From contig CAZVKN010000005.1 of NCBI GenBank assembly GCA_964627035.1, positions 652 to 64,651 on the forward strand: a stretch of 64,000 bases of DNA. The letters run 5' to 3'. A model generated the notes under the pieces. That model was not told the DNA's origin. It ran no database searches and saw nothing but the letters and a program-made list of their open reading frames with translations. Shown one piece after another: positions 26,017 to 53,764 of the stretch (the first letter of the stretch is position 1; every line of letters begins with the position of its first letter). The translations under genes were made by a program, and so were the position numbers. The stretch is from an uncultured bacterium (GTDB lineage Bacteria; Electryoneota; AABM5-125-24; Hatepunaeales; Hatepunaeaceae).

Positions 26017-26043
26017 TCATTCTGGTAAAAACCAGAATCCAGT
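26017..26043. repeat. REP-like hairpin repeat (family E: ATTC(C/T)(C/T)G(C/G)-loop-complement-GAAT with CCAGT/GACG flanks), copy E5
   Basis: tcATTCTGGtaaaaaCCAGAATccagt, between the nfeD start and the OMP gene stop. Confidence 0.6.
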
Positions 26044-26063
26044 AATTATAAGACTCTATGTAA

Positions 26064-27608
26064 TCAAAACTGACTCGTCAACGTCACCTTCACACCGTTA
26101 AACGGATTCACCGAACGGCATACTCCACCCGTGCATTTCAATCCTCCGCGTTCGTGCCCTCCGAACAGCCGCACCTGATGTTGCTCCATGAAGTTGTATG
26201 TCAGCTCCAGCGAGGGCCAATATGTGTATGATGCGTCCTTAGTGCCACCCTCTTCAGCCGAATCGTTTGAGCGTTCGACCGCTGCCGTCAACGACACATC
26301 CGGTGAACGGGAGAAGCTTAGTGCCAGATACTGGTCGTCAAAGCGGCGATCCTGTCCCTTGTCATAATCCAGCAGCAACTGCACATCCGCTGACACGGAG
26401 TATATATCACCGAAGTGGTAGTCATACATCGTACCGAATCCGATGCGCTCCCGCCATTCTGAGTAACCACCTTCCGCTGTTGGAGTAAACTTCACATCCT
26501 GATGCACTCCACCCTGAATAACCACATGATGCGTCTCGTAATCGTCCCATTCTATATTAAAGTAAAACGCCTGATAAGGCGAGAACTCCTCCTTCAATGT
26601 CGGAATCAATGCGTTGCCGTTCTCTCGACTGCTCGACTGGTTGAAGTTCAGCAGATACGACCAGTCACCATATATTCCTGTTGCCTCAAGCTGCCATCCC
26701 ACATCATCTCTAAATTCCTGCTGACGAGGATGACGATCAAGCAGATACATAGTAGTAGTTGGAGTTACTGTAGCTGGATAGAGTAATGGTGGTAGGTCCT
26801 CATATGTTAAAAAATTATAATTCTTGTAATCGAGCAACACGCTGACACCGGATCCGTAGTAAGCCAGTGCAGAATAAAAACCGTTGTGATATTGAGCTGT
26901 AGGATCGAAATCAACGCGATCAGCAACATACGCTGCGAAAATTGAACATGAACCGTACTCCGCTTCAAGTTCAACACCTTTACGCTCGATCAGCGGGTGA
27001 CGAGGTCCGTCTTCCAAACGACTGACCGTGCCTCCGATTCTCAATTGATCCATCCTTGTCAATCCGTCCGGCAGACGATAAGACATAAACAGCCCCTCAG
27101 ATGCTTCTCGGAAGTCTCCTGTGGAATCAATCTCCACACCACGAAACGCAGCACCCTCAAAACCGCCGTTATAGCCTTCGACTAGCACCCCCTGCAAACC
27201 GGTGTCAAATCCGAGATCAATTGATTCGAGTGTCCCAAACAGCAATCCCCTACCCCATGTCCGGTAGAAATTACCACCCCGGATTGTCAATCCTTCCGGC
27301 GCATACTCAATATACCACTGATCAAAAGCATCCAGACCCGCCTGACGCACTCCACCCAGTTCCGGTACTGACGGAAGCAAATAGGTCTGACGCAAGTATA
27401 TACGGTAATCATCCAGCGTTGCATTAAGCTCCAGATAGTTCTCGAAGAAGGCATAGTCATCATCGGATGATCCGGTTATCGGCTTACCGCGTCCGTATCT
27501 CGCTTCGTTCTGCCCGGAAATATTCAGATCGAGGGCATATATATTGTCAAACATTAAGAATAGCGTGAAGGTCAATGATAAAACGGTTTTGATAAATCTA
27601 TTAGTCAT
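26064..27608 (-). CDS. Outer-membrane beta-barrel protein (putative porin) with a C-terminal Phe
   Basis: Signal peptide MTNRFIKTVLSLTFTLFLMFDNIYA. Alternating amphipathic beta-strand pattern throughout. Ends ...VKVTLTSQF, the terminal aromatic typical of BAM substrates. A GTGATT array abuts the start codon. Confidence 0.55.
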   Translation of the reverse strand: MTNRFIKTVLSLTFTLFLMFDNIYALDLNISGQNEARYGRGKPITGSSDDDYAFFENYLELNATLDDYRIYLRQTYLLPSVPELGGVRQAGLDAFDQWYIEYAPEGLTIRGGNFYRTWGRGLLFGTLESIDLGFDTGLQGVLVEGYNGGFEGAAFRGVEIDSTGDFREASEGLFMSYRLPDGLTRMDQLRIGGTVSRLEDGPRHPLIERKGVELEAEYGSCSIFAAYVADRVDFDPTAQYHNGFYSALAYYGSGVSVLLDYKNYNFLTYEDLPPLLYPATVTPTTTMYLLDRHPRQQEFRDDVGWQLEATGIYGDWSYLLNFNQSSSRENGNALIPTLKEEFSPYQAFYFNIEWDDYETHHVVIQGGVHQDVKFTPTAEGGYSEWRERIGFGTMYDYHFGDIYSVSADVQLLLDYDKGQDRRFDDQYLALSFSRSPDVSLTAAVERSNDSAEEGGTKDASYTYWPSLELTYNFMEQHQVRLFGGHERGGLKCTGGVCRSVNPFNGVKVTLTSQF

Positions 27609-27646
27609 GTGATTAGTGATTGAGTGATTGGGTGATTTTGTGATTC
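27609..27646. repeat. Tandem GTGATT-type array (5 units) abutting the OMP gene start codon
   Basis: tgtgattagtgattgagtgattgggtgattttgtgattc. Confidence 0.7.
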
Positions 27647-53300: not shown

Positions 53301-53524
53301 GTTTCTCCTACAGGATCACGGCGTGGATTGAGACGATCCAATTCATGGAACACTCCACTATTTGTGGGCATCGGCGAATCGGGCTTGATGATCTTGTTTG
53401 TTTCCGTCCAGACCCACCGGCTTTGAGTCGCCAGATCGGGCTGAATATTCGGACGCGCAAAAGCTGATCCGATCATACCGGCAATCAGCACTATCAGGAA
53501 TAGTAAGTAAACTCTTCGTAACAT
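50378..53524 (-). CDS. Large T9SS-sorted protein with at least one BNR/Asp-box motif (possible sialidase-like beta-propeller), Fn3/Ig-like regions and a type-A C-terminal domain
   Basis: Signal peptide MLRRVYLLFLIVLIAGMIGSAFA. SD GGGAGG 5 nt upstream. Asp-box ISDDYGITW. C-terminal domain AYPNPFNGTTTVSFDIARLDVVHLALYDVNGRIA...TGVYVLRLQ...QKVVLVK. The functional assignment of the N-terminal domain is weak. Confidence 0.7.
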   Translation of the reverse strand: MLRRVYLLFLIVLIAGMIGSAFARPNIQPDLATQSRWVWTETNKIIKPDSPMPTNSGVFHELDRLNPRRDPVGETAEVGETYYDYQHNGTISKMIALDPDGGIHVTWMKSYDSGQARRRMAYNWYDPDAEEWLEPRDGGIVVDNSNRAGYGHVTILPEDGRAVVFCHSQPNPLQGDEYLSTMCVDFAPGIGAFESAYAPTWPNEVFLIWPKGAISQNNTAHMLATENSDEGVLFQRIGYWSGEATDRDFQEWEWTEPPINVDTASAITTIVSSSRTSDKIVMAWHHNRVGADVGPWEAVGGAYQRNNDIRYVIMEEGEEYDPDEHEVMSMTKIIPPDPDNFQEDVDFDPLDPENPDEGYGDIWRPYCDVDIQLDPWDDEPYGVFATCAMYERPFVNDEGDIIDGMTGEHDMLWFWNSQEDTLTLIANGYYFNRTNNGGNWHSRCGGWRMNADRGSIAFDPENEGMVYVTWVSFQQIMELSGEDDPPFDYDNFEFAADTSGDGYSNAEIMVSISDDYGITWKEAVNITNTHYEGENPRPGDSESEAWQSVAVDVYDEALHLTYVKDIDAGGIPQNEGSSTLNPVMYQNVPLEDLNFEDLDDLELPYEGFIFHNYPEARPVIYDVIRDPGVPVTDQSVTVTATVTSGDEDVELTQVDLIYITSENEHIDEDDVTTVQMEAGEGDTYSATIPAQSEGTRVAYKISATNDLENETLIPRNYYYMYTVRDEGDLSIYDVQFRPELWENASDASPYRGYEVTVTGIVTTPPTFNDAFDAYVIQDARDLWSAVFIRNIDDDLDVGAEVTVTGIVMERDPEEARKWQYATYIDVSEYEVISDGNDIFDPLPIETNDMQFSELGEELEGVLVYIANAQVDTLEDFGAEFRRGQLPIRDVSDVRGWLSGLGLTQEQKDLCGGGGFDSYNFETEFNDITGVITESYGHYAITPRSAGDLGGVGVEGDGSTSPHSFSLNTAYPNPFNGTTTVSFDIARLDVVHLALYDVNGRIALDLFEKELGAGSYQYPVDASSLSTGVYVLRLQTPDASASQKVVLVK

Positions 53525-53698
53525 TAAACCTCCCTTAACTGTTAGCCGGCAAACCCGGCGTTAAAACATTGTTGACGTGAAAACATCTAAACTGTCTTCG
53601 CTTCATTAAATAGTATTTGCAATTATGGTGTGACTGAATATAACTCTCACAGTTGGAGTGCCGACATTCCTGAGTTCCTTGAAATATTCACTATTTTA

Positions 53699-53764
53699 TC
53701 ATTCCTGCGGAAGCAGGAATCCAGTTCTCTTCTCTTCTCATTCCCGTGAAGGCGGGAATGACGG
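53699..53764. repeat. Two adjacent REP-like hairpins (family E copies E1 and E2) between the T9SS cargo gene and pilD
   Basis: E1 is tcATTCCTGCggaaGCAGGAATccagtt. E2 is tcATTCCCGtgaaggCGGGAATgacgg. The spurious tracked ORF 53658..53852 spans them. Confidence 0.6.

Follow-up and report, generated by a model that had tools for sequence, protein, structure and literature searches.

CGTC-tagged REP hairpins in an uncultured marine Calditrichota-like bacterium, including one copy read in frame within a MurF-like paralog

Six hairpins of about 27 bp, E1 to E6, occur in a 64,000-nucleotide stretch (the window) of contig CAZVKN010000005.1 of assembly GCA_964627035.1, derived from an uncultured bacterium, and one of them, E4, lies inside an open reading frame (ORF). 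The locus raises the questions of what kind of element these hairpins are, how they might be dispersed, and how one of them came to be read as part of an enzyme. In a first-pass annotation made from the sequence they were described as a family resembling repetitive extragenic palindromic (REP) elements, with an in-frame copy in a Mur-ligase gene; this description is supported, but the family is not new and had already been published (PMC3733652, PMC11893778). We propose, with a probability of roughly 0.8, that E1 to E6 are copies of the CGTC-tagged REP elements variously named CGTC-1, dRS3, NTS, RPE-6 or SRM (Ssn-related motif), that these elements are linked to Ssn-type nucleases, and that E4 is an in-frame copy tolerated in a loop of its host protein. 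Both the family and the in-frame insertion of REP elements are known already; the new part is the host lineage, and the work extends the recently characterised SRM-Ssn repeat/nuclease system to an uncultured marine Calditrichota-like lineage and offers a clear-cut case, open to interpretation in structural terms, of a REP element that is read in frame.

The CGTC-1 REP family was defined by a CGTC, TGTC or CCTC tag, an 8-bp stem starting with AT, a 4-nt loop and a CCA tail; its members mostly form head-to-head (HH) dimers and are found between unidirectional or convergent ORFs, and many cases of intragenic copies have been listed (Di Nocera et al. 2013, PMC3733652). The family corresponds to dRS3 in Neisseria and to RPE-6 in Rickettsia (PMC3733652). 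The dRS3 element was defined as ATTCCC-N8-GGGAAT (Bentley et al. 2007, PMC1797815), and its oriented form was redefined as NTS, CGTCATTCCCGCGMAVGCGGGAATCYRG (Chenal et al. 2025, PMC11893778). In the latter study SsnA, a 94-aa protein with a single GIY-YIG domain (cd10448), was found to bind the NTS hairpin sequence-specifically and only in single-stranded DNA (ssDNA), to cut ssDNA a few nucleotides upstream of the tag, and to modulate transformation, while no RNA binding was observed; ssn genes across phyla are flanked by SRMs in an arrangement, NTS-ssnA-NTS, that resembles an insertion sequence (PMC11893778).

All six predicted hairpins were present, and their boundaries could be refined from tag to tail. 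Their common architecture is a 4-nt tag of the YGTC type, an 8-bp stem beginning with AT, a loop of 4 nt (5 nt in one case) and a CCAGT tail. E5 (26015-26043, plus strand) reads TGTC-ATTCTGGT-AAAA-ACCAGAAT-CCAGT and is a single CGTC-1/SRM element that passes the published SRM pattern. The intragenic E4 (35307-35335, minus strand) reads CGTC-ATTCCCGC-GAAG-GCGGGAAT-CCAGT and agrees with the NTS consensus in all 28 positions. E6 (44111-44140, plus strand; TGTC-GTTCTGGA-CTTGA-TCCAGAAT-CCAGT followed by a T-run) is the left partner of an HH heterodimer with tags pointing outward, and the right partner, E3 (44155-44183, minus strand; CGTC-ATTCCCGC-GTAG-GCGGGAAT-CCAGT), is reached 14 nt past the CCAGT tail of E6 (18 nt when counted from the CCA tail). 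The stem of E6 opens with a G-T pair, and its 5-nt loop CTTGA is CGTC-2-like. The remaining two are variants: E1 (53697-53725, plus strand; TATC-ATTCCTGC-GGAA-GCAGGAAT-CCAGT) fails the strict SRM pattern at its tag, and E2 (53736-53763; TCTC-ATTCCCGT-GAAG-GCGGGAAT-GACG) is tag-like at both ends and has one stem mismatch; the GAAG loop suggests a plus orientation for E2, which is nevertheless ambiguous in strand. E3 and E4, reported earlier to be nearly identical, differ by a single loop base, and E3 is likewise one loop base away from the NTS consensus. The two types of end distinguished in the first-pass annotation (tcATTC on one side, GAATccagt or GAATgacg on the other) belong to one asymmetric element in its two orientations; E3 and E4 had appeared as ctggATTC...GAATgacg because they lie on the minus strand.

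An exhaustive scan for perfect hairpins and an element-specific scan of the window recovered E1 to E6 and almost nothing else of that form. The core pattern ATTCYY..RRGAAT was matched five times against 0.52 expected, and none of 100 shuffled windows contained five or more matches. The published SRM search pattern was matched four times against 0.35 expected (shuffle maximum 3, n=100), by E3, E4, E5 and one non-palindromic chance site. Significance was judged from these two counts and not from the relaxed element scanner, which is poorly specific at one mismatch (6 observed vs 1.55 in Markov shuffles). When each element was folded as ssDNA, an 8-bp hairpin (7-bp in E6) was obtained with z = -3.3 to -4.9, a value equalled by no shuffle.

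These features agree with CGTC-1 in most respects. The tag is CGTC in E3 and E4, TGTC in E5 and E6, CGTC on one side of E2, and the off-consensus TATC in E1; stem, loop and tail are those of the family in five of the six (E6 has the G-T pair and longer loop described above, and E2 is without a CCA tail); E6/E3 is an HH dimer, the E1/E2 pair is ambiguous, and the sites lie between ORFs with an occasional in-frame copy. The differences from the published family are the 5-nt loop of E6, the off-consensus tags of E1 and E2, and the host, since CGTC-1 was reported mainly in Alphaproteobacteria plus five phyla and is found here in a marine Calditrichota-like bacterium. The Neisseria dRS3 arrays, or neisserial intergenic mosaic elements (NIME; Parkhill 2000; Bentley 2007, PMC1797815), are less similar: the dRS3 20-mer fits E2, E3 and E4, but not E1, E5 and E6, and dRS3 alternates with RS elements in those arrays, whereas in the window there are no RS arrays and only singles and pairs, with one or two copies per site.

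E4 lies in a gene of the Mur-ligase family (34686-36323, minus strand, 545 aa), situated immediately upstream of an adjoining Ddl gene (33415-34587, minus strand). The first-pass annotation had placed E4 in a MurF-like coding sequence, and E4 is indeed within this ORF, but the product is no more than MurF-like. It scores 228.3 against TIGR01143 (murF), below the cutoff of 288.6, with a match limited to model positions 65-368; the MurF N-domain is missing and is replaced by a helical membrane domain (residues 1-185) that precedes Mur_ligase_M and Mur_ligase_C. Because of the low score and the missing N-domain, the accurate label for this protein is 'MurF-like paralog'. Its nearest named relatives are encoded in Calditrichota and Ca. 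Hatepunaea metagenome-assembled genomes (MAGs). The N-terminal polytopic membrane domain of about 185 aa carries an invariant LH.LQLE.Y motif, and the paralog family (about 540 aa) is conserved from Calditrichota to homologs in Paenibacillaceae and Clostridia.

On the sense strand E4 is read as gac TCG TCA TTC CCG CGA AGG CGG GAA TCC AGt, giving D329-SSFPRRRESS-V340 with S330-S339 as the insert, in agreement with the earlier claim that the element contributes about ten in-frame codons (SSFPRRRESSV). The alignment of orthologs that had been suggested as a check was carried out: the segment is lineage-specific, and the peptide is not found in orthologs that lack the palindrome. In an alignment of 26 sequences the E4 segment falls in a hypervariable stretch in which distant homologs have no residues, and among 120 homologs the peptide is carried only by the window protein and by one relative, the latter with identical palindromic DNA. 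In 75 of the 120 homologs the two anchor motifs that flank the loop could both be located; the distance between them is at least 55 residues (the length in distant homologs), 65 in the window protein, and up to 135 in the Calditrichota-like clade. In an AlphaFold2 model of the host protein (mean predicted local distance difference test score, pLDDT, 86; predicted template modelling score 0.79), residues 331-340, which lie in the segment that joins strand 322-327 to strand 344-353, have a pLDDT under 50, so that E4 is predicted to encode a disordered connector on an otherwise well-defined fold. The suggestion that the insertion could be recent was not borne out: the protein is identical in 15 metagenome contigs, and no empty-site allele was seen. 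Taken together, the alignment and the structural model indicate that E4 is a lineage-specific, in-frame REP insertion at a putatively permissive loop. It is read through, missing from orthologs and located at a permissive site, and resembles in this respect the Rickettsia palindromic elements (RPEs), in which an in-frame palindromic repeat adds a short peptide to a conserved enzyme at a permissive site; it differs from them in phylum, in being the one intragenic copy in 64 kb, and in length, the RPE-1 elements being much longer.

Could E4 instead be a palindrome that arose by chance within coding sequence of ancestral origin? The in-frame reading of the peptide is all that speaks for coincidence. 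The complete (28/28) agreement of E4 with the NTS consensus, the homologs that lack the segment, and the 33 identical nucleotides in the sole other carrier of the peptide, despite only 48% third-position identity elsewhere, leave this explanation with practically no probability, and we consider it refuted.

The other carrier is one of two syntenic relatives, L007 and L008, that were compared with the window. L007, whose Mur-ligase protein is 65% identical in the 26-sequence alignment, has the same 33 nt as the window, gactcgtcattcccgcgaaggcgggaatccagt, in the corresponding loop but 11 codons farther from the conserved VVYF motif than E4; a second, inverted copy follows 14 nt after the 33-nt unit and is read as LDSRLRGND, and L007 thus has an in-frame, tags-outward doublet in the Mur-ligase loop. 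The two genes are 68% identical in nucleotide sequence, and third positions are 48% identical in the most conserved 130 codons. With such divergence a 33/33 match in the most variable loop is not neutral retention and implies either independent insertions of the consensus element or active sequence maintenance. In L008, the closer relative (80% aa identity), a doublet of a different family, tcgGTCATTGCGggcgaagcgaaGCAATCt ... ggattgcttcatcacgatgttcctcgcgatgac, stands at the codon where E4 starts. The L008 gene (10001-11692) carries at codons ~330-358 an in-frame inverted doublet, GTCATTGCG...GCAATC, which is read as VIAGEAKQS and LLHHDVPRDD and whose family has no more than the GTCAT/AATC ends in common with the CGTC-1 element. 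Other in-frame repeats were observed in or near this loop in further members of the clade: within the loop of P0029 (L372, 4150-4360) a 39-nt unit is repeated in tandem about 3.5 times, and the array ends in the perfect palindrome CCCCCCCTGC-TATT-GCAGGGGGGG; in P0011 (L373, ~4270-4400) an inverted C8/G8-rich pair lies mostly just downstream of the loop.

The family extends far beyond this lineage. The pattern GTCATTCCCGC-N4-GCGGGAATCCAG, with 23 specified bases, was searched in IMG/VR and in GTDB species genomes and was matched in at least 120 viral contigs of the former and at least 120 genome stretches of the latter; the hosts among the matches listed include Pseudomonadota, Bacteroidota, Planctomycetota, Chloroflexota, the candidate phyla radiation, Nitrospirota, Neisseria and the Calditrichota relative Ca. 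Hatepunaea. In 325 matches the base before GTC was C in 58% and T in 39%, and the loops were strand-specific (GCAG, GAAG, GAAA); the CCA tail was present in 453 of 583 relaxed matches. Dimers in the fetched loci were head-to-head in 98 cases, tail-to-tail in 26 and head-to-tail in 40. Of 387 perfect-stem elements in loci L011-L371, 45 lie in open frames of at least 250 codons; this value of about 12% is an upper bound, because high-GC DNA yields spurious long ORFs. Intragenic REP copies had been called rare in the first-pass annotation, and they are uncommon (2% of copies in N. meningitidis, PMC11893778), but they are well documented, and in-frame copies are uncommon without being exceptional. 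The element-derived peptides VIPA(K/Q)AGIQ, SFPR(R/K)RES, RHSR(E/A)GGNP, LDSR(L/F)RGND and WIPAFAGMT recur in the same loci. Strings such as SFPRRRES, VIPAKAGIQ and LDSRLRGND in predicted proteins are a signature of the element and not of protein homology, and can be used to flag REP-derived segments and spurious ORFs. The motif was also seen in contigs labelled 'MAG: Klebsiella pneumoniae' and 'Nanoarchaeota archaeon' (L131, L172), which may be mis-binned.

Genes associated with the elements were sought in two sets of loci. The first comprised 2.1 Mb around 325 elements with 16,524 open frames. Unbiased clustering of the ORFs near elements in this set yielded phage structural genes, ABC transporters and an IS110 cluster, and no conserved transposase. 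The link to GIY-YIG genes emerged only once ORFs with an element at either end had been selected and their sequences used as queries: seven small GIY-YIG ORFs were found, all seven with elements within about 50 bp of both ends, mostly in opposite orientations, one plus and one minus (tags outward). The second, independent set was drawn from metagenomes by means of the ATTCTGG stem that E5 and E6 carry; its 0.70 Mb contained 14 Ssn-like ORFs, of which 13 had an element within 300 bp and 10 had elements on both sides, and several of the flanking pairs are heterodimers in which the CTTGA-loop type of E6 takes part. The GIY-YIG domain of the Ssn-like ORFs was confirmed with Pfam. This association is a reproduction of the published result of Chenal et al. 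2025 (PMC11893778). The IS110-family transposase (DEDD_Tnp_IS110 and Transposase_20) was located at positions 403-1362 of L116 and in six other viral loci between L011 and L130, and its presence is consistent with the behaviour of Nf-type filamentous prophages of Neisseria, which integrate into dRS3. One could accordingly regard the elements as chiefly attachment or target sites for IS110 recombinases or filamentous phages, as dRS3 is for Nf phages; the IS110 cluster in seven motif-bearing viral loci and the published integration of Nf into dRS3 (cited in PMC1797815) fit such a role. Against it, the window holds no IS110 gene or prophage, and a target role explains neither the hundreds of copies nor the bracketing of GIY-YIG genes, and we regard it as very improbable.

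The explanation we favour, dispersal linked to an Ssn-type nuclease, would proceed as follows. The unit, oriented and 28-30 nt long, with a GNRA-like loop and a CCAG tail in the published systems, would fold as a hairpin once the DNA becomes single-stranded; an Ssn-type GIY-YIG nuclease would recognise the hairpin and cut ssDNA at a point upstream of the tag. With an outward-tagged copy on each side, the nuclease gene would resemble an insertion sequence, and single copies as well as tags-outward dimers such as E6/E3 would be non-autonomous derivatives of the ssn cassette, which may spread inside genomes and cross phyla with the cassette, most of them settling downstream of genes. E4 would be a copy inserted in frame into the Mur-ligase paralog, at a surface loop that is disordered, varies in length and connects two beta-strands, and would persist because an in-frame addition of 30-36 nt to a surface loop is harmless and about ten extra residues are tolerated. 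We infer that a cognate Ssn homolog is encoded in the host genome and that Ssn, rather than another enzyme, probably disperses the copies.

Possible traces of insertion were found at three sites. Direct repeats of 4-6 nt bracket E4 (CAGTGTT...AGTGTT; window 35290-35345), E5 (TAAT...TAAT; window 26005-26050) and the first L007 copy (AGTTCT...AGTTCT; L007 11025-11075) at identical offsets and delimit a 30-nt unit that starts ~4 nt upstream of the CGTC tag. This start is close to the SsnA cut as we estimate it, although that estimate is unconfirmed, derives from oligonucleotide lengths and assumes that the oligonucleotides end at the NTS 3' end. The repeats flanking the element differ between the window and L007 although the enclosed 33-nt unit is identical, which argues for independent insertions. 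CGTC-type elements occupy the loop in three syntenic lineages (a single in the window, doublets in L007 and L008), and it is conceivable, although we think it doubtful, that the Mur-ligase loop is a preferred landing site and not merely a tolerant one, with footprints of Ssn-driven transposition. If this were true, the repeats would be the first insertion footprints in support of Ssn-driven transposition of SRM elements. The recurrent colonisation of one enzyme loop by different CGTC-type elements in three relatives is a small natural experiment that bears on whether and how CGTC/SRM elements move. A general target-site duplication was not detected: in several hundred elements of other genomes, fixed-offset 4-mer repeats reached at most 2.8% vs about 0.6%, and longest repeats of at least 4 nt were found at a frequency of 0.50 vs 0.41 in singles, with nothing for HH dimers. 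The repeats at E4, E5 and the L007 copy may be due to chance or be lineage-specific.

The missing general duplication weighs against Ssn-driven dispersal, as do several other points. The transposition of Ssn cassettes has never been demonstrated and was only raised by Chenal et al. (PMC11893778). E1, E2 and E6 miss the strict SRM pattern. The likeness to the NTS/SRM-SsnA system consists in the exact match of E4, the passing of the SRM pattern by E3, E4 and E5, and the bracketed Ssn-type GIY-YIG genes in related loci; it differs in that there are no large clusters around surface-protein genes and that no ssn gene, nor any RAYT (REP-associated tyrosine transposase) or other transposase gene, was found in the 64-kb window. 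The rest of the genome was not found, as the GTAG-REP lineage marker of the window had no match in 120 metagenome loci. A change of stem sequence abolishes the activity of N. meningitidis SsnA (PMC11893778), and the copies with the ATTCTGG stem (E5, E6), probably not accepted by that enzyme, would therefore need a different Ssn. Finally, a preprint ties the ATTCCCGCGCAGGCGGGAATC REPINs (REP doublet forming hairpins) of Neisseria to the Group-2 RAYT NMAA_0235 (10.1101/2021.07.10.451892).

The last point leads to the alternative that a RAYT mobilises these elements as REPINs, as has been put forward for the Neisseria REPINs of the same core; the GIY-YIG association would then be secondary. HH dimers have the architecture of REPINs, and the window also holds GTAG-tagged REPs of a RAYT-type family (see below); REPIN-RAYT systems (Bertels & Rainey 2011, 2023) share with the present elements inverted REP doublets as the likely mobile unit and a single-copy enzyme gene flanked by the repeats. 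Here, however, the associated gene encodes a GIY-YIG nuclease in place of an HUH tyrosine transposase, and CGTC or TGTC tags stand where GTAG would be expected. No tyrosine transposase flanked by CGTC repeats was found by Di Nocera et al. (PMC3733652), and a phmmer search with E. coli RayT against the 16,524 open frames of the first set returned nothing at E<=10 in the same 2.1 Mb in which the seven GIY-YIG genes were found, although a single query may miss divergent RAYTs; nor was a RayT homolog found in the window. We consider mobilisation by a RAYT unlikely.

The intergenic copies bear on a further alternative. Five of the six copies are intergenic, all between same-strand or convergent genes. 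E5 occupies most of the 68-bp gap between the stop of a DUF6029 gene (26064) and the start of an NfeD gene (25995), both on the minus strand. The E6/E3 pair lies between the convergent icd and a 65-aa ORF/lexA, and E1/E2 lie in a 423-bp spacer between two minus-strand genes, downstream of a prepilin-peptidase gene, consistent with the earlier remark that the paired copies sit at the 3' ends of convergent or tandem genes. Such hairpins might be kept mainly for a host RNA role in 3'-end formation or mRNA stabilisation, being immobile, with E4 as a coding accident. The location of these five copies, which follow genes and separate same-strand or convergent ORFs, agrees with published REP surveys and favours an RNA role, as does the T-run behind E6, which was flagged as terminator-like. 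Nevertheless, a structural RNA role leaves a near-identical 27-nt sequence over unrelated phyla unexplained; the small ORF beside E3 already has a genuine terminator hairpin behind it; an Rfam scan of the whole window matched no family; and SsnA, as stated above, does not bind RNA (PMC11893778). Orthologous spacers of relatives also differ in whether they hold an element: neither L007 nor L008 has the E6/E3 dimer in its lexA-icd spacer, and the latter has a GTAG-type REP there (2243-2300). As the whole explanation, the RNA role is given a low probability, but it can coexist with Ssn-linked dispersal as an exaptation, and E6 with its T-run may have such a secondary, terminator-like role.

The window has a G+C content of 47%, and DNA identical to it was found in marine metagenome contigs. 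Its gene content includes a run of cargo proteins of the type IX secretion system (T9SS), type IV pilus genes, and genes for LexA, Icd, electron transfer flavoprotein, pyruvate phosphate dikinase and Obg. A separate, GTAG-tagged REP family of the RAYT-type superfamily is present at 15730-15752, 39236-39266 and 24573-24640 (for example ccGTAGTCGTGGTTGAGACAACCACGACTAC, and the pair GTAGGGGC.../...GCCCCTAC); it is presumably the one counted as the first family in the first-pass annotation. The 65-aa ORF (44279-44476, minus strand) directly downstream of lexA is conserved, contains an internal repeat (L/I)PIYSI(K/R)R(V/I)R, and has a counterpart of 61 aa in L008 and a looser one of 64 aa in L007; it is without family assignment and is not called in the JGI/ENA gene sets for the lineage, and it is followed by a strong terminator hairpin (44244-44271). 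Eight consecutive large proteins with Por_Secre_tail (T9SS sorting) domains are encoded at 370-24138, and a type IV pilus/type II secretion block (prepilin peptidase, PilC-like protein, PilB-like ATPase and secretin) extends from 53948 to 63809.

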